A DNA stretch of 28,522 nucleotides from a virus. Taxonomy: Duplodnaviria > Heunggongvirae > Uroviricota > Caudoviricetes. Shown in pieces: positions 16,881 to 22,833 of the stretch (positions are counted from its first letter, which is position 1; the number at the start of each line of letters is the position of its first letter). The stretch lies in IMG/VR virus record IMGVR_UViG_2529292923_000024; one strand, given 5' to 3'. A model generated the notes under the pieces. It was not told the DNA's origin. It ran no database searches and saw only the letters and a program-made list of their open reading frames with translations. The position numbers and the translations under genes were made by a program.

Positions 16881-17786
16881 ATGCAGGGGCGTGTCCTGCT
16901 GGAGCCAGAGCCGGAACGTTATTCATCTTTCGCCAGTGGTGCCGTTCCGGCGGCATCACAACCGCTGGCGGATGATCCTGCCGTTCGGACCGTGTTCCGC
17001 AATGAGGCAGTGATCCGTCGTGCTGGTGGCGTGGAATGTCTTGAAAGCTGGTTACTTCGTGAAAAAGGTTGCCAGTGGCCTCATTCCGACTGGCACAGCG
17101 AGAACATGACCACAATGCGACACACGCCGGGCGCAATCCGTCTGTGCTGGCACTGCGATAACCAGCTGCGCGATCAGTTCACGGAACGGCTGGAATCAAT
17201 GGCAACGGATAACTGTACCCGCTGGGTGTTGTCTGTTGTGCGTCGGGATCTCGGTTTTGATGACAGTCACGTTGTGACAATGCCGGAACTGTGCTGGTGG
17301 CTGATTCGTAATGACCTGGCGGATGCCTTACCGGAAAGTGCAGCCCGTAAGGCACTGAGATTACCGAAGCCTGTTGTGCCGTCTGTCACCCGGGAAAGTG
17401 ACCTTGTGCCTTCGGTTCCTGCCACCAGCATCATCCAGGATAAAGCGAAAAAGGTGCTGGCGCTGAAAGTGGATCCGGAGTCGCCGGAGTCTTTTATGTT
17501 ACGCCCAAAACGTCGCCGCTGGGTTAATGAAAAGTACACGCGCTGGGTTAAGACACAGCCGTGTGCATGTTGTGGAAAGCCCGCTGATGATCCCCACCAC
17601 CTGATAGGCCACGGTCAGTGTGGAATGGGTACAAAAGCGCATGACCTTTTTGTGTTGCCTTTGTGCAGAAAGCATCACGACGAGCTGCATGCGGATACCG
17701 TGGCATTTGAAGAGAAGTATGGCTCTCAGCTGGAGCTGATATTTCGTTTTATCGATCGTGCGCTGGCAATTGGCGTACTGGCGTAA
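16881..17786 (+). CDS. DUF968-family protein with C-terminal HNH-like Cys/His motif; 5' end displaced by the IS50-like insertion
   Basis: 301-aa ORF beginning at the ATG inside the right direct-repeat copy; 29 in-frame codons with a GAGGTG RBS and GTG start lie at 15239-15325 left of the IS, so the native gene was about 329 codons. Confidence 0.6.
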   Translation: MQGRVLLEPEPERYSSFASGAVPAASQPLADDPAVRTVFRNEAVIRRAGGVECLESWLLREKGCQWPHSDWHSENMTTMRHTPGAIRLCWHCDNQLRDQFTERLESMATDNCTRWVLSVVRRDLGFDDSHVVTMPELCWWLIRNDLADALPESAARKALRLPKPVVPSVTRESDLVPSVPATSIIQDKAKKVLALKVDPESPESFMLRPKRRRWVNEKYTRWVKTQPCACCGKPADDPHHLIGHGQCGMGTKAHDLFVLPLCRKHHDELHADTVAFEEKYGSQLELIFRFIDRALAIGVLA

Positions 17787-17799
17787 GTGGAGAACGAGC

Positions 17800-18552
17800 A
17801 TGAACCTTGAAGCCTTACCGAAATATTACTCCCCGAAATCTCCAAAACTGAGCGATGACGCACCGGCGACAGGCTCTGGTGGTTTAACAATTACGGATGT
17901 GATGGCTGCGCAGGGGATGGTGCAGTCAAAAGCACCGCTTGGGTTTGCTTTATTCCTGGCAAAAGTTGGTGTTCAGGATCCTCAGTTTGCGATTGAAGGT
18001 CTGCTCAATTACGCGATGGCACTGGATAACCCGACATTGAATAAATTGAGTGAAGAAACCCGGCTACAGATCATTCCTTACCTTGTGAATTTTGCCTTTG
18101 CTGATTATTCCAGGTCTGCGGCAAGTAAGGCTCGCTGTGAGCATTGTGCTGGTACTGGATTTCATAATGTATTGCGCGAGGTGGTGAAACACTCCAGAAG
18201 CGGGGAATCTGTTATTAAGGAAGAGTGGGTGAAGGAACTATGTCAGCATTGTCATGGTAAGGGAGAAGTCAGCACAGCATGCAGAGGGTGCAAGGGTAAA
18301 GGTATTGTCCTGGATGAAAAAAGAACCCGGCTTCATGGCACGCCTGTTTATAAGGTTTGTGGGCGTTGCAATGGAAACCGGTTTAGCCGTTTACCAACCA
18401 CACTGGCGCGGCTTCATGTCCAGAAGCTGGTACCAGACCTGACGGATTATCAGTGGTACAAAGGATATGCAGATGTCATTGATAAACTGGTTACAAAGTG
18501 CTGGCAGGAAGAAGCATATGCAGAGATACAATTGAGAAAGGTGACAAGATAA
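17800..18552 (+). CDS. Q: late-gene antiterminator Q (Qin quuQ / phage 82 type)
   Basis: 250 aa from MNLEALPKYYSPKS; Cys clusters (CEHCAGTG, CQHCHGKG, CRGCKGKG, CGRCNGN); followed by a pR'-like promoter and terminator. Confidence 0.8.
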   Translation: MNLEALPKYYSPKSPKLSDDAPATGSGGLTITDVMAAQGMVQSKAPLGFALFLAKVGVQDPQFAIEGLLNYAMALDNPTLNKLSEETRLQIIPYLVNFAFADYSRSAASKARCEHCAGTGFHNVLREVVKHSRSGESVIKEEWVKELCQHCHGKGEVSTACRGCKGKGIVLDEKRTRLHGTPVYKVCGRCNGNRFSRLPTTLARLHVQKLVPDLTDYQWYKGYADVIDKLVTKCWQEEAYAEIQLRKVTR

Positions 18553-18612: not shown

Positions 18613-18657
18613 TTTCCCAACGATGGGCTTTGTATGTCTACCGTTGATAAGATTTAA

Positions 18658-18684
18658 GAACCCGCCGATGCGCGGGTTTTTTTG
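18658..18684 (+). terminator. tR'-like rho-independent terminator
   Basis: CCCGC-CGATGC-GCGGG hairpin followed by T7 (18677-18683), about 70 nt downstream of the putative pR' start. Confidence 0.7.
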
Positions 18685-18894
18685 TACCCAGAATCCTGTG
18701 AGCTATACGGAAAGTACACAGAAAGGAAGGTGCGACCACAATTAATAACAAAATCTTAAAAATTGCACATGGCACTATTAGTTTTCTAAATATTGTGTAT
18801 TTTTTGTATTGCAGGATGACCCTGTAACGAAGTTTGCGTAACAGCATTTTGCTCTACGAGTTTGCCAGCCTCCCCCAGTGGCTGGCTTTTTTAT

Positions 18895-19014
18895 GTCTGT
18901 AGCGTCAAAGCAGCAATGTCGCTGGGGCGTCGTGCAATTGGCGTTGAGCTGGAGACTGAACGTTTTGAGCAGACGGTCAGGGAAGTTCAGGATTTAGTCA
19001 GTCAGAACGGATGA
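18895..19014 (+). pseudogene. remnant of a DNA methyltransferase C-terminus
   Basis: In-frame translation ...KAAMSLGRRAIGVELETERFEQTVREVQDLVSQNG ends at TGA 19012-19014; there is no upstream catalytic region; this resembles the C-terminal tail of DNA methylases as recalled. Confidence 0.45.
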
Positions 19015-19054
19015 TATTGCAGAATTAGTTACGTACCGTTATTATCCTGCGCCC

Positions 19055-19130
19055 GGCCCTTTAGCTCAGTGGTGAGAGCGAGCGACTCATAATCGCCAGG
19101 TCGCTGGTTCAAATCCAGCAAGGGCCACCA
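19055..19130 (+). tRNA. ileZ: tRNA-Ile2 type (anticodon CAU, ileX/ileZ-like)
   Basis: Cloverleaf assembled by hand: acceptor GGCCCTT/AAGGGCC, anticodon loop CTCATAA, TPsiC GGTTCAAAT, 3' CCA; near-identical to E. coli ileX as recalled. Confidence 0.85.
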
Positions 19131-19137
19131 TCACATA

Positions 19138-19214
19138 CCGCCATTAGCTCATCGGGATAGAGCGTCAGCCTTCGAAGCTGGCTGTGCGGGGTTCAAGTCC
19201 CCGATGGCGGTCCA
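19138..19214 (+). tRNA. argN: tRNA-Arg (anticodon UCG)
   Basis: Acceptor CCGCCAT/ATGGCGG, anticodon loop CTTCGAA, TPsiC GGTTCAAGT, 3' CCA. Confidence 0.8.
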
Positions 19215-19227
19215 TTATCAGCATCAT

Positions 19228-19304
19228 GCGTTGTTAGCTCAGTCGGACAGAGCAATTGCCTTCTAAGCAATCGGTCACTGGTTCGAATCCAGTACAACGC
19301 GCCA
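19228..19304 (+). tRNA. argO: tRNA-Arg (anticodon UCU)
   Basis: Acceptor GCGTTGT/ACAACGC, anticodon stem ATTGC/GCAAT with loop CTTCTAA, TPsiC GGTTCGAAT, 3' CCA. Confidence 0.85.
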
Positions 19305-19394
19305 TATTTATTTACTTGGCTCGCTTTTGCGGGCCTTTTTTTGTATCTGCGTTACACCATTAACTAATAAATCGAGTGCTTATCAGGAGGCTAT

Positions 19395-19619
19395 GTGAAA
19401 AAACTGATGGTGACGATTGGTCCGTTCGAAACAGAAGTTAGTTTTCGTGTTGTTCAGGGGGAGAGTGTACTTGTTGAAGATGTATTTCATGGAAAATCAA
19501 CAGGTCCTTATGTAAAAGAATATCTTATCGACGCCACGGATGAAAATATTGAGGTGGTGTACGATTCCGTCAATCACCCTGATTTGATCATTAAGGCAAA
19601 ATTGAAGCCACTTTATTGA
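19395..19619 (+). CDS. hypothetical small protein (74 aa) in the late cargo slot
   Basis: GTG start 4 nt after AGGAGG; no recognisable family; a terminator-like motif lies upstream (19315-19350). Confidence 0.45.
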   Translation: MKKLMVTIGPFETEVSFRVVQGESVLVEDVFHGKSTGPYVKEYLIDATDENIEVVYDSVNHPDLIIKAKLKPLY

Positions 19620-19671
19620 TCTGACCGGGAGCAATCATAAAATATCTCTGGGTACCCACAAGGAGATAAAT

Positions 19672-19902
19672 ATGTTTGTTTCTGAAGTGTTAATGGAAGA
19701 TAAGGACAACAAAGGATGGGTTAAAGGTTGGGCTGTGGTAAGAAGCTCGCCCTGGCATCTTGTTGGGGTTTTTGCGACAGAGGAAGACGCAGAAACGGAA
19801 GCAAGAAAGATGGGAGATAAGTACGAGGTTCACTATGGCTCGCATCGAACAGGAAGTGATGATTTTGTCTGGGGGAGTAACAGTCGTTTAACCCCAGAAT
19901 AA
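19672..19902 (+). CDS. hypothetical small acidic protein (76 aa) in the late cargo slot
   Basis: ATG preceded by AAGGAGA; followed by a terminator-like motif (19915-19946); no recognisable family. Confidence 0.45.
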   Translation: MFVSEVLMEDKDNKGWVKGWAVVRSSPWHLVGVFATEEDAETEARKMGDKYEVHYGSHRTGSDDFVWGSNSRLTPE

Positions 19903-20069
19903 TCCCGTAACTGAGGTCGCTATTGGCGGCCTTTTTTGTATCCGCGCCACGCCCGGCGCATATCAACCACAGAGCCTTTCGGGGGTGAGCTTACGGAGTG
20001 GTCAGTGTGACTTTCTCTGTGGGCAGATCGCTCCCGGGCGTTGGCTCACCCACCCAAAGGAACGTCACG

Positions 20070-20501
20070 ATGTTTGGTATTTTTGGTAAAAAAGCCCGCC
20101 GAGCGGCAGTGGAAATTAAAAAGTTTGAGAAACGTGATCTGGCACAGGCGGTTATTAATGCTGCCTATCTGGTGGCCTATGCAGATGGTGAATGTGAGGC
20201 TTCAGAGAAAGCGAAGATCGAGCAGATCTTGCGTAACCAGCCTGCGTTGTCCGCGTTTACGTCAGAAATTAATGCGATTAGCGCAACCATTATCGGTCAG
20301 CTGGATACGAACTTTAAAATTGGTCGTCGAGCGGCATTGCGTGAAATTGAAGATGTGAAACACGATACGCGTGAAGCGGAAGATGTGCTGGATGTGGCGG
20401 TGGCCATTGCGGAGGCAGACGGCGAAATTGAGCCGGAAGAGCGCAAGGTGCTGGAAGAGATTGCCGGTGTTCTGGGTCTTCGTCTGGAGAATCACCAGTG
20501 A
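20070..20501 (+). CDS. TerB-like (tellurite-resistance TerB family) protein
   Basis: 143 aa from MFGIFGKK; paired acidic DGE motifs (AYADGECEASEKAKIE and AEADGEIEPEERKVLEEIAGVLGL) typical of the TerB fold. Confidence 0.55.
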   Translation: MFGIFGKKARRAAVEIKKFEKRDLAQAVINAAYLVAYADGECEASEKAKIEQILRNQPALSAFTSEINAISATIIGQLDTNFKIGRRAALREIEDVKHDTREAEDVLDVAVAIAEADGEIEPEERKVLEEIAGVLGLRLENHQ

Positions 20502-20665
20502 CGGTAAAACTGCGCCTGGCTGTGGCTGCACTCCTGCTGTTTCTGGTGGTGATGGTGGATTTCACCAGCAGAATCATGTCGGTGCTGGCGGATGGGGTGC
20601 TGGTCTGCGGCATTGTGGTATTGCTGTGGCCGGTGATAAAAAGAAACAGCCTGCATAATGCTTGA
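20498..20665 (+). CDS. small membrane protein (55 aa, two predicted TM segments), translationally coupled to the TerB-like gene
   Basis: GTG overlaps the TerB stop (GTGA); translation VTVKLRLAVAALLLFLVVMVDFTSRIMSVLADGVLVCGIVVLLWPVIKRNSLHNA; absent from the ORF track (under 60 aa). Confidence 0.4.
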   Translation: MTVKLRLAVAALLLFLVVMVDFTSRIMSVLADGVLVCGIVVLLWPVIKRNSLHNA

Positions 20666-20979
20666 TTTTTTTATTTGCTGTTTATTAAAAATACTACTGC
20701 ATGGTGAATCCCCCTGTGCGGAGGGGCGATCAGCAACCAGGTATATGGGATAATCGCGGATTCAGGTGCTGATACTGAATTCACCGGGAGGCACCCGGCA
20801 CCATGCTTTGCCGCAAAAGTGTTGTTTCTGTTTTTCTCAAACTATCATCGTTATCCCTTTATTTCCGGCTGCGCATGGCGTGGCCTTTTTTTTACGACCA
20901 GCCACTGGCAGATGGCCATCCTGTAATTTGATTCCGGTTCCGGCTTTTTAACTCTGTTCCTGTACACGGGAGAAATTCG

Positions 20980-22833
20980 ATGTCGATTAAACATTATGAT
21001 GTTGTCAGGGCGGCGTCGCCGTCAGACCTTGCGGAAAAGCTGACACACAAACTGAAAGAGGGCTGGCAGCCGTTTGGTAGTCCGGTGGCCATAACCCCTT
21101 ATACCCTGATGCAGGCGATTACAGCAGAAGGTGATGTGGTGGTCAGTGGTGCAACTGAGCCGGATTGGTACTACGTCATCGTACTGGCCGGGCAGTCCAA
21201 TGCCATGGCTTACGGTGAAGGGCTTCCGCTGCCGGATTCATACGATGCTCCGGATCCGCGCATTAAACAGCTGGCGCGCCGCAGTACAGTTACGCCGGGT
21301 GGGGCTGCATGCAGATATAACGATATTATTCCGGCCGACCACTGCCTGCATGATGTGCAGGATATGAGTACGCTGAATCATCCGAAGGCAGACCTGAGCA
21401 AAGGGCAGTACGGCTGTGTCGGCCAGGGCTTACATATTGCCAAAAAACTGCTCCCGTATATCCCGAATAACGCGGGGATCCTGCTGGTACCATGCTGTCG
21501 TGGTGGTTCGGCATTCACCCAGGGCGCGGAGGGGACATTCAGTGCGGACACGGGGGCCAGCCAGGATTCGGCACGCTGGGGTGTGGGTAAACCGTTATAT
21601 CAGGACCTGATTGCGCGCACTAAAGCTGCATTACAGAAGAACCCGAAAAATGTGTTGCTGGCGGTGTGCTGGATGCAGGGAGAGTTTGACATGAGCGCCG
21701 CCACCCACGCACAGCAACCTGCGCTGTTTACAGCCATGCTGACACAGTTTCGTGCTGACCTCTCCGTGTTTAACGCGCAGTGCCATGGTGGCAGTGCTGC
21801 AGATGTGCCGTGGATTTGTGGTGACACGACGTATTACTGGAAAAATACATACGCTACCCAGTACGACACCGTGTACGGCGGGTATAAAAACAGGGAGAGT
21901 GAGGGCGTTTATTTTGTGCCCTTCATGACAGACGGTAACGGCGTCAATACCGCCACTAACGCACCGGCAGAAGATCCGGATATTCCGGCATCAGGATATT
22001 ACGGTGCGGCATCGAGAACGAATGGAAACCAGGTATCATCAAACCGCCCGACACATTTCAGTTCATGGGCGCGCAGGAGCATTATTCCGGATCGTATGGC
22101 AACCGCTATTCTGAACGCAGCCGGGCGCACCTCAGCTTTCATCAGTGGTAAGGCACCGGAAATCAAACCCTCGCCCGGCGGCAACACGCCATCGGGGCCG
22201 TCTGAAGATGCATCCGTACGCACAATCTCCCTGTTGCCGACAGCCGGAGAGGCTGCTGCGCAGGGCTGGACCATTAAGGACGGCGGAATTCAGTTGTCGG
22301 GTGGTGTATTTAAGATCGCCAAGCAGAGCAATAAAACCTGGTCCCTGATGCATCCGGTGGATGACGCAGTCTCCCTGCTGACACGGGGTGGCAGACTGAG
22401 CTGTAAGTTTCGACTGTCAGGCGCACTGACCAACAACCAGTTCGGCCTGGGAATTTATCTGTATACCGATGTAGCGTTACCTGACGTCGTGGCGATGACC
22501 GGGACTGGTAACCCGTTCCTGATGTCGTTCTTCACCCAGACCACAGACGGCAAACTGAATCTGATGCATCACAAGAAAGCAGGAAACACAAAGTTGGGCG
22601 AGTTCGGGAATTACAGTAATGACTGGCAGACGCTGGAACTGGTGTTCACCGCCGGCAGTGCCACGGTTACTCCGAAACTGAATGGAGTGGCTGGCCCGGC
22701 ATTCCAGGTCATAAAAGACAGTCTGACACTGGGGCTGAATGCGCTGACGCTGACGGATATTACCAAAAATGCAGCGTATGGCGTTGAGATAGAAAGTCTG
22801 GTGCTGGAGATAAATGCACCGGCATCATCATAA
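20980..22833 (+). CDS. nanS: prophage sialate O-acetylesterase NanS-p (DUF1737 plus SASA/SGNH esterase domain plus C-terminal domain)
   Basis: 617 aa; N-terminal DUF1737-like MSIKHYDVVRAASPSDLAEKLTHKLKEGWQPFGSP; esterase GQSN motif (VIVLAGQSNAMAYGE). Confidence 0.75.
   Translation: MSIKHYDVVRAASPSDLAEKLTHKLKEGWQPFGSPVAITPYTLMQAITAEGDVVVSGATEPDWYYVIVLAGQSNAMAYGEGLPLPDSYDAPDPRIKQLARRSTVTPGGAACRYNDIIPADHCLHDVQDMSTLNHPKADLSKGQYGCVGQGLHIAKKLLPYIPNNAGILLVPCCRGGSAFTQGAEGTFSADTGASQDSARWGVGKPLYQDLIARTKAALQKNPKNVLLAVCWMQGEFDMSAATHAQQPALFTAMLTQFRADLSVFNAQCHGGSAADVPWICGDTTYYWKNTYATQYDTVYGGYKNRESEGVYFVPFMTDGNGVNTATNAPAEDPDIPASGYYGAASRTNGNQVSSNRPTHFSSWARRSIIPDRMATAILNAAGRTSAFISGKAPEIKPSPGGNTPSGPSEDASVRTISLLPTAGEAAAQGWTIKDGGIQLSGGVFKIAKQSNKTWSLMHPVDDAVSLLTRGGRLSCKFRLSGALTNNQFGLGIYLYTDVALPDVVAMTGTGNPFLMSFFTQTTDGKLNLMHHKKAGNTKLGEFGNYSNDWQTLELVFTAGSATVTPKLNGVAGPAFQVIKDSLTLGLNALTLTDITKNAAYGVEIESLVLEINAPASS

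Follow-up and report, generated by a model that had tools for sequence, protein, structure and literature searches.

The site at which Shiga toxin (Stx) phages carry stxAB is occupied, in the prophage sequence analysed here, by two small genes. With a terminator that belongs to them, they make up a mobile cassette of 595 bp, an accessory unit of lambdoid phages of the sort known as a moron. The sequence (IMG/VR record IMGVR_UViG_2529292923_000024; hereafter the window, meaning the whole stretch of 28,522 nucleotides, nt) is that of a lambdoid prophage of the Escherichia coli O145/O26 Shiga toxin-producing (STEC) type. The two open reading frames (ORFs), which an original prediction made from the sequence alone had correctly located, lie on the plus strand, ORF1 at 19395..19619 (GTG start, 74 amino acids, aa) and ORF2 at 19672..19902 (ATG start, 76 aa). 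The explanation that best accounts for the whole, to which we assign a probability of roughly 0.55, is that of a moron transcribed by late read-through, in which the start of ORF2 is masked and whose products have an intracellular role in conflict.

Over the 621 nt around the two genes, the window is 100% identical to O145 strain RM9873 and 99.8% identical to many O145, O26, O103 and other genomes. In all those genomes, and in every source, both ORFs are named "hypothetical protein" (WP_000735807, WP_000498123).

A discrete cassette at the Shiga toxin gene site

In a megablast comparison with phages, positions 18659-19351 of the window match many Stx2a phages at 97.6%. Past the point where this homology ends, stx2A starts after 45 nt in the Stx2 phage VT2phi_272 and ORF1 after 44 nt in the window, so that the predicted location of the cargo at the stxAB position proves to be exact. 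The last sequence common to the window, the Stx2 phages and prophages with an empty slot is an upstream terminator-like hairpin, T1 (19318..19350, plus strand), which consists of GGCTCGC-TTTT-GCGGGCC and a T-run and ends in the junction repeat TTTTTTGTATCTGC; a terminator scan places the hairpin proper at 19318-19335, followed by the T-run (-13.8 kcal/mol, z -4.6). In prophages of O157:H7, O55:H7 and O111 strains, TerB comes immediately after the same tRNA cluster, over a span reduced by about 595 nt. The junction alignment shows the empty site to be the left half of T1 joined to the right flank of the downstream terminator-like hairpin, T2, and therefore the cassette (19351..19945, plus strand), which comprises a leader, ORF1, a regulatory spacer, ORF2 and T2, is a 595-bp insertion/deletion immediately after ...TTTTTTGTATCTGC. 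In the same alignment, stx2A follows the same junction point as the cassette. Copies of the junction repeat are spaced 595 nt and share the terminator tail TTTTTTGTATC[T/C]GC (direct-repeat families D2, D3 and D5), and the cassette boundaries can slide inside the repeat.

T2 (19913..19945, plus strand) is made up of a hairpin at 19913-19933, a T-run to 19940 (-12.7 kcal/mol, z -1.8) and the second copy of the junction repeat (TTTTTTGTATCCGC). A hairpin with a T-run lies 3' of ORF2 in 8 of the 8 loci inspected, and T2 is the cassette's own terminator; the last 44 nt of the cassette alone match about 140 further genomes. The hairpin between ORF1 and ORF2 has no T-run, so the expectation that each gene is bracketed by a terminator-like motif was not borne out, as T1 and T2 bracket only the pair.

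The slot is thus a variable one, found empty, with stx2 or with the ORF1-ORF2 cassette: of 5,426 complete E. coli genomes, 786 have TerB directly beyond the junction (the empty state), 553 have stx2A there and 96 have ORF1. The suggestion that moron cargo occupies this slot is upheld by the discrete insertion/deletion, the cassette's own terminator and its lower GC content (0.39-0.44 for the cassette against 0.50-0.55 in the flanks; 0.385-0.44 in ORF1 and the spacer versus 0.50-0.58 in the flanks). The arrangement extends beyond E. coli. In a Salmonella prophage (L002), window positions 19137-19943, from two Arg tRNAs through the end of T2, are found at 93% identity between Q/HicAB and the holin gene, the two Arg tRNAs travelling with the cassette.

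The likeness to stx2AB, as found in VT2phi_272 and phages of the 933W type, consists in the same insertion point, after the terminator that follows a tRNA cluster of the ileZ-argN-argO type, and in a two-gene unit co-oriented with the late operon, both units being expected to depend on Q read-through. Unlike stx2AB, to which it has no sequence or fold relationship, the cassette encodes proteins without signal peptides, without homology to the N-glycosidase of ribosome-inactivating proteins (RIP) and without the OB fold of the B subunit; it measures 0.6 kb against about 1.3 kb, and it occurs at other genome positions as well. The moron concept derives from the lambdoid phages HK97/HK022 and has been summarised for Stx phages (PMC8065619). 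The cassette resembles such morons in being present or absent between homologous genomes, in its own terminator and lower GC content, and in its occurrence in the late region at several slots. It differs from them in lacking a clear 5' promoter, the only conserved promoter-like element being internal, before ORF2, and in the probable masking of the second gene's start by a conserved hairpin.

Distribution and conservation of the gene pair

In 97 of 127 loci gathered with the ORF2 profile, an ORF1 homologue is found 39-75 nt 5' of the ORF2 homologue, and the two ORFs are accordingly not independent, as had been supposed. All ORF2 homologues first examined (from Salmonella, Xenorhabdus, metagenomes and the phage mEp237) have an ORF1 homologue just 5'. 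Homologous pairs are present in Xenorhabdus, Yersinia, Citrobacter, Salmonella and environmental phages, and ORF2 homologues in soil Pseudomonas. The closest named relatives, and true homologues, are gp60 and gp61 of the isolated phage mEp237, which share the gene order, the spacer element and the terminator. In contrast to the window, the mEp237 pair lies after Rz; its identity to the window is about 35-40% for ORF1 and 65% for ORF2. Mean pairwise identity is 45% for ORF1 and 70% for ORF2, and the divergences of the two are correlated (Spearman 0.43). ORF1 evolves faster than ORF2, which is the more conserved and more widespread of the two, and the genes form a conserved, though not an obligate, pair.

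Both ORFs are, by their pattern of substitution, real coding genes under purifying selection. Values of dN/dS (the ratio of nonsynonymous to synonymous divergence), obtained in measurable pairs only, are 0.11-0.33 for both genes and 0.11-0.18 for ORF2; over eight to ten loci, nonsynonymous differences amount to 0.17-0.5 in ORF1 and 0.13-0.27 in ORF2, against saturated synonymous differences (0.6-0.9) in both genes. With both ORFs conserved and selected across related prophages, the possibility raised with the original prediction, that they might not be conserved, falls away.

Pre-lysis, post-lysis and tail-module sites are the classical positions of morons. Among 59 non-redundant enterobacterial cassettes, on which the position classes are based, 19 lie between Q and the holin gene or TerB and 24 between the lysis genes and terminase, 16 being unclassified; 43 directly flank lysis genes, and several begin 9-30 nt after Rz. 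Some cassettes are in tail modules (class B, inspected in locus L080, where the cassette comes after the tail tube and DUF6246 genes). In enterobacterial phages, the cassette is always co-oriented with the late genes. It is thus not tied to the stx slot, the position after Rz being used at least as often. In Pseudomonas phages, ORF2 is preceded by an unrelated ORF of 84 aa, the two lying antisense within tail genes; the 84-aa protein was considered as a relative of ORF1 and ruled out (hhalign probability 0.5%).

The two proteins

The GTG start of ORF1 and the ATG start of ORF2 are supported by the N-termini that their homologues keep, MKKLxVT... and MFVxExL..., respectively. Each protein matches a phage family profile over its full length, ORF1 that of PHROG 2571 (E = 1.9e-26) and ORF2 that of PHROG 4280 (E = 4.2e-41), both families being of unknown function. 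The acidity predicted for the ORF2 product (isoelectric point, pI, 5.08) is real, and the ORF1 product, for which it had gone unmentioned, is acidic too (pI 4.97). Searches of Pfam, NCBIfam and PADLOC with both proteins gave nothing significant, and profile searches of PDB sequences gave only chance-level matches (alpha-crystallin, DamX SPOR, 2lyy), so that, as originally stated, neither protein can be recognised as a member of a family with known function. No paper mentioning either protein or family was found in the literature.

The structure modelling proposed as a check was informative for one protein of the two. The ORF1 model is confident (predicted local distance difference test, pLDDT, 90.8) and shows an all-β sandwich of six strands beginning at residue 2, with residues 2-9 forming a confident strand within the sandwich. 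A fold search of BFVD with this model returned nothing at E<0.05, and ORF1 is, as modelled, a small β-sandwich without a specific relative. An all-against-all HMMER search with ORF1 returned only 11 matches, of which 2 (P0026, P0027) are spurious repeat proteins. For ORF2 the model is poor. Its predicted topology is β-β-α-β, and the family is marked by the invariant motifs GWVxGWxVV..PW and YGSxxxGxDxF. A match to the Pfam family DUF7336 (16.8 bits over 24 residues) is below the gathering threshold of 25 bits and is seen, weakly, in only 5 of 15 ORF2 homologues. A G-run near 19872 (about 19868-19875) varies in length among strains and leads to ORF2 tails of 69, 73 and 76 aa; these C-terminal tails differ between alleles and are not conserved in the family, and the 76-aa form of the window is the rarer allele (41 contigs versus 195-292 contigs for the other forms).

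No signal peptide, hydrophobic leader or membrane segment was found in ORF1 or ORF2. Because residues 2-9 of ORF1 are a strand of the sandwich and neither N-terminus has a hydrophobic leader, the two proteins are cytoplasmic and do not constitute a secreted toxin.

A cysteine-rich paralogue of ORF1 (GKCTECYSR...VEC...C; about 40% identity) is encoded, without a partner gene, 24 nt past Rz in a related O145 prophage (L001 12055-12279, identical to L011 3474-3698, minus strand). E. coli prophages and many Stx phages (Stx2c, Stx2a and H-19B phages) likewise have it behind Rz, and no trace of ORF2 is left on its 3' side. The window was searched for this paralogue and lacks it.

A conserved regulatory spacer

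The spacers between the two genes are otherwise unalignable, yet the last 40 nt before ORF2 show much stronger conservation than synonymous sites in either gene. This element, which was missed in the first reading of the sequence, has three parts, namely a -10-like hexamer, a palindrome and an inverted repeat. The hexamer belongs to a promoter-like site within the spacer (19616..19643, plus strand; TTGATC, 16 nt, TAAAAT). In 38 aligned unique spacers, the T, A and final T of the -10-like TAnnnT are invariant, and TAnnnT is located 6-7 nt before the palindrome core in 41 of 41 unique spacers; a -35-like match of at least 4/6 is present in 46% of spacers against a background of 12%. A related motif, TAGCGT, is found 5' of the Pseudomonas ORF2 homologues. 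A sigma-70 promoter 5' of ORF1 was looked for and ruled out, no acceptable hexamers being present; as regards a promoter of its own, the cassette thus has no convincing one 5' of ORF1 and a conserved TAnnnT with a weak -35 element before ORF2.

The second part is a perfect 10-bp palindrome, TGGGTACCCA (19649..19658, plus strand), with the core GGGTACCC (19650-19657), which lies in the apical part of the hairpin described below. The core is unique in the window and occurs in 82 of 125 loci, and the palindrome is nearly invariant in the family; one clade has the 10-bp form TGGTTAACCA with the core GGTTAACC, which is a symmetric double change. The third part would fold, in RNA, as a hairpin (19626..19684, plus strand) that encloses both the Shine-Dalgarno sequence (19660-19665) and the AUG (19672-19674) of ORF2. 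Its inner 5' arm UAUCUCU (19643-19649) pairs with AGGAGAUA (19661-19668), the 3' arm being the ORF2 Shine-Dalgarno sequence, and in the outer stem spacer positions 19626-19634 pair with ORF2 codons 4-6 (19676-19684). The predicted fold in the window has an energy of -22.2 kcal/mol (z -4.3). The same topology is obtained in 12 divergent loci (z -3.0 to +0.35), nearly all of the 41 unique spacers fold likewise (mean z -2.05), and the 3' arm of a spacer pairs more stably with the 5' arm of the same sequence than with 5' arms taken from others (ddG -1.8 kcal/mol; 0 of 5000 permutations). A hairpin masking the ORF2 start is thus likely. The strong ribosome-binding sites attributed to the two genes are present in so far as a Shine-Dalgarno sequence precedes each (AGGAGG at 19385-19390 for ORF1, AAGGAG for ORF2), but that of ORF2 lies within the predicted conserved hairpin and is therefore probably not freely accessible. 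The spacer (19620-19671) has no match in Rfam, even at E<=1. A site for CsrA was considered and rejected, as there is only one GGA and its spacing is off consensus.

The operator hairpin of the MS2 coat-replicase junction is an example of translational masking and coupling, and the dimerization initiation site (DIS) of human immunodeficiency virus 1 (HIV-1) is a palindromic kissing loop. Like the former, the predicted spacer hairpin contains the start of the downstream gene and has an invariant apical sequence suggestive of specific recognition; like the subtypes of the latter, the two palindrome variants of the cassette differ by a symmetric double change. Both likenesses are analogies for a predicted structure, and at the level of DNA an operator is just as plausible an interpretation of the palindrome.

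A second conserved non-coding element was observed 5' of ORF1 in post-Rz cassettes (CATTACAGCAGGCATTCACTGAGTGCCTG[C/T]GATAATGCA, with the inverted repeat AGGCA...TGCCT inside; loci L006, L056, L058, L059, L061, L062, L075, L082 and L094). The ORF1 leader of the window, at 19352-19388 (TTACACC...GAGTGCTT), is only partly like it.

A model for the expression and role of the cassette

Since there is no convincing promoter 5' of ORF1 and terminators lie upstream, the cassette would, judging from its position, owe its transcription mainly to lytic growth, when late transcription antiterminated by Q reads through into it. In the resulting RNA the Shine-Dalgarno sequence and AUG of ORF2 would be locked in the hairpin, limiting ORF2 synthesis. 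In several loci the distance from the ORF1 stop codon to the beginning of the hairpin is 3-7 nt, and for this reason translation of ORF2 is probably coupled to ribosomes finishing ORF1; this coupling would set the ratio of the two proteins. The internal -10-like element could, in addition, yield a short ORF2-only mRNA without the inhibitory arm.

As to function, we would tentatively suggest that the proteins act within the infected cell, in conflict between phage and host or between phages, through counter-defence or host takeover; ORF2 would be a conserved binder and ORF1 its fast-evolving enterobacterial partner. The suggestion draws on the small size and solubility of the proteins, their patchy distribution, the fast evolution of one partner, and the sharing of hot spots with Acb2/Tad1-like, SIR2 and TerB genes. 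Phages that carry the cassette also hold Acb2/Tad1-hairpin, SIR2_2 and Band_7 proteins in the same late accessory regions (L004 8891-9133; L005 1489-3459 and 7385-7678), which suggests that those regions collect conflict genes.

Several observations weigh against this reading. An ORF1 paralogue occurs alone after Rz in E. coli and Stx phages, without a remnant of ORF2, and outside the Enterobacterales ORF2 occurs without ORF1 in Pseudomonas, Ralstonia, Azotobacter and other genera; as each family is also found alone, an obligate complex of the two is not established. The adjacency to anti-defence genes is anecdotal, being seen in two loci, and in these the co-located Acb2_Tad1_hairpin genes are the only link to anti-defence, no homology of either protein to known anti-defence proteins having been found. 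Family, PDB-sequence and BFVD searches gave no homology or fold match pointing to any activity, and the AlphaFold2 model of ORF2 (pLDDT 54.7) is too poor for its fold-search matches to be meaningful. As for the hairpin, the spacer sequences are related to one another, several z-scores are near zero, and covariation is modest, pair counts being only modestly above those of shuffles and slid controls. RNAalifold predicts no consensus structure on the spacer alignment, and the case for the hairpin therefore rests on the per-sequence folds, the arm-swap energies and the modest pair counts.

A more far-reaching version of the model, which we regard as rather unlikely, takes the cassette to be a late-expressed conflict module, for counter-defence or exclusion, found across enterobacterial temperate phages, with a new cis-regulatory RNA that sets the dose of its products through a hairpin over the ORF2 start. 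The invariant palindromic loop of that hairpin, GGGUACCC (GGUUAACC in one clade), would then be read by the ORF1 or ORF2 protein, or would mediate RNA-RNA kissing, and the element would overlap an internal promoter that switches between a masked long and an unmasked short mRNA.

Alternative explanations

The strongest competitor of the late read-through model is possible, if doubtful, and holds that the cassette is a conversion or exclusion module expressed in the lysogen: with the prophage repressed, ORF2 would be transcribed from the -10-like element and ORF1 perhaps from a further promoter, and the products would, in the manner of classical morons, shield the lysogen from other phages or change the physiology of the host. 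Such a role would fit the invariant TAnnnT of the 41 unique spacers, the enrichment of -35-like hexamers, the TAGCGT motif of the Pseudomonas homologues and the placement of the palindrome at an operator-like position, about +1. Moreover, the Pseudomonas ORF2, being antisense to tail genes, needs a promoter of its own, and morons are often described with their own promoter and terminator (PMC8065619). Against it stand the weakness of the -35 elements, the lack of a recognisable promoter 5' of ORF1, the constant co-orientation of enterobacterial cassettes with late genes and the lack of any match to a PADLOC defence model; RNA pairing, moreover, may account for part of the conservation seen in the hexamer.

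The predominance of cassettes that directly flank lysis genes, some of them within 9-30 nt of Rz, together with the late expression to be expected there, raises the question of whether the proteins are accessories of lysis or late morphogenesis that influence when lysis occurs, how spanins or endolysin act, or how virions are assembled. We consider this improbable. Both proteins lack membrane segments and signal peptides, and most related phages, close relatives with an empty slot among them, do without the cassette. It is also found in tail modules, and in Pseudomonas it has no lysis genes around it. Furthermore, the positions concerned are generic hot spots for morons that are also used by stx, TerB and Acb2-like genes.

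Two small adjacent genes with a palindrome near a promoter-like site and a tightly controlled product ratio could, in principle, also form a toxin-antitoxin or abortive-infection pair with the palindrome as autoregulatory operator, and HicAB, ParDE and RelE systems are found elsewhere in the same accessory regions. This is very improbable: neither protein matches a toxin, antitoxin or anti-phage defence model or is predicted to have a DNA-binding fold, both are acidic, each gene is found alone in many genomes, so that the two are not obligately linked, and the promoter-like site lies between the genes and not 5' of both. Finally, an exported Stx-like virulence factor that is released at lysis and acts on the eukaryotic host is scarcely credible, despite the stxAB-identical position, the two-gene organisation and the enrichment in O145, O26, O103 and O111 STEC and enteropathogenic E. 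coli backgrounds, since the proteins have neither Sec signal peptides nor homology to toxins (a RIP N-glycosidase A or an OB-fold B component of the AB5 kind) or receptor-binding proteins, and homologues are found in Xenorhabdus, Yersinia, Citrobacter, Salmonella, environmental phages, the non-pathogen phage mEp237 and, for ORF2, soil Pseudomonas.

Genomic surroundings of the slot

Gene calls bear out the predicted order of Q, terminator, tRNAs, cargo, nanS-p and lysis genes, the full order being Q (17758-18552), a tR'-like terminator (about 18656-18686), a methylase remnant, three tRNAs, the cargo, TerB, a DUF3927 gene, nanS-p (20980-22833), holin, endolysin and Rz. The cargo does precede nanS-p, as predicted; three features that the prediction did not mention intervene, all on the plus strand: a TerB-family gene (20070-20501), an overlapping DUF3927/TciB-like gene of 55 aa (20498-20665) and a match to the small RNA STnc100 in Rfam (20673-20842; 102 bits versus a gathering score of 47). 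The STnc100 match sits between the DUF3927 gene and nanS-p, where RefSeq has only an opposite-strand pseudogene fragment. The PHROG category of the DUF3927/TciB-like gene is inhibition of cell division or colicin resistance. Together with the TerB gene it makes up a separate module, which lies directly 3' of the tRNA terminator in empty-slot prophages and whose leader starts within the T2 tail; a metagenomic locus is homologous from 19928 onward.

Upstream of the slot, the tRNA cluster (19055..19304, plus strand; ARAGORN and RefSeq) consists of a CAT-anticodon tRNA, assigned to Met by ARAGORN and to Ile in the RefSeq annotation, followed by Arg-TCG and Arg-TCT. Between tR' and this cluster lies the remnant of a DNA methylase gene (18901-19014, plus strand), a RefSeq pseudogene whose N-terminus is missing, with a terminator-like hairpin 5' of it (18864-18894). 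Other variants of the region from the tRNAs to nanS either lack TerB and have an opposite-strand iraM between the DUF3927 gene and nanS-p, or hold pseudogene remnants. The TerB-less iraM arrangement is found in many prophages of extraintestinal pathogenic E. coli (L019, which is E. coli AVS0973, and ST131-type genomes), with nanS-p often degraded or truncated.

Implications

The cassette is a genuine, conserved moron, cargo of an ordinary phage type that is analogous to stxAB in position, and nothing in it overturns the current understanding of such elements; among features that are otherwise of a known type, the regulatory spacer is the unusual one. The comparison reveals the Shiga toxin gene site to be a precise and reusable docking point, at a terminator with a conserved tail motif. 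Genomes with the cassette include O145, O26, O103 and O111 strains, at least one of which (O145 RM9872) has an Stx2 prophage elsewhere in the genome. Knowledge of the function of the cassette would reveal what other cargo selection favours at the position that is induced most strongly in these prophages, and the spacer element offers an experimental handle on how a phage controls the ratio of two cargo proteins. If the proteins should prove to be anti-defence or exclusion factors, this would bear on the spread and competition of prophages, including Stx phages, in STEC.

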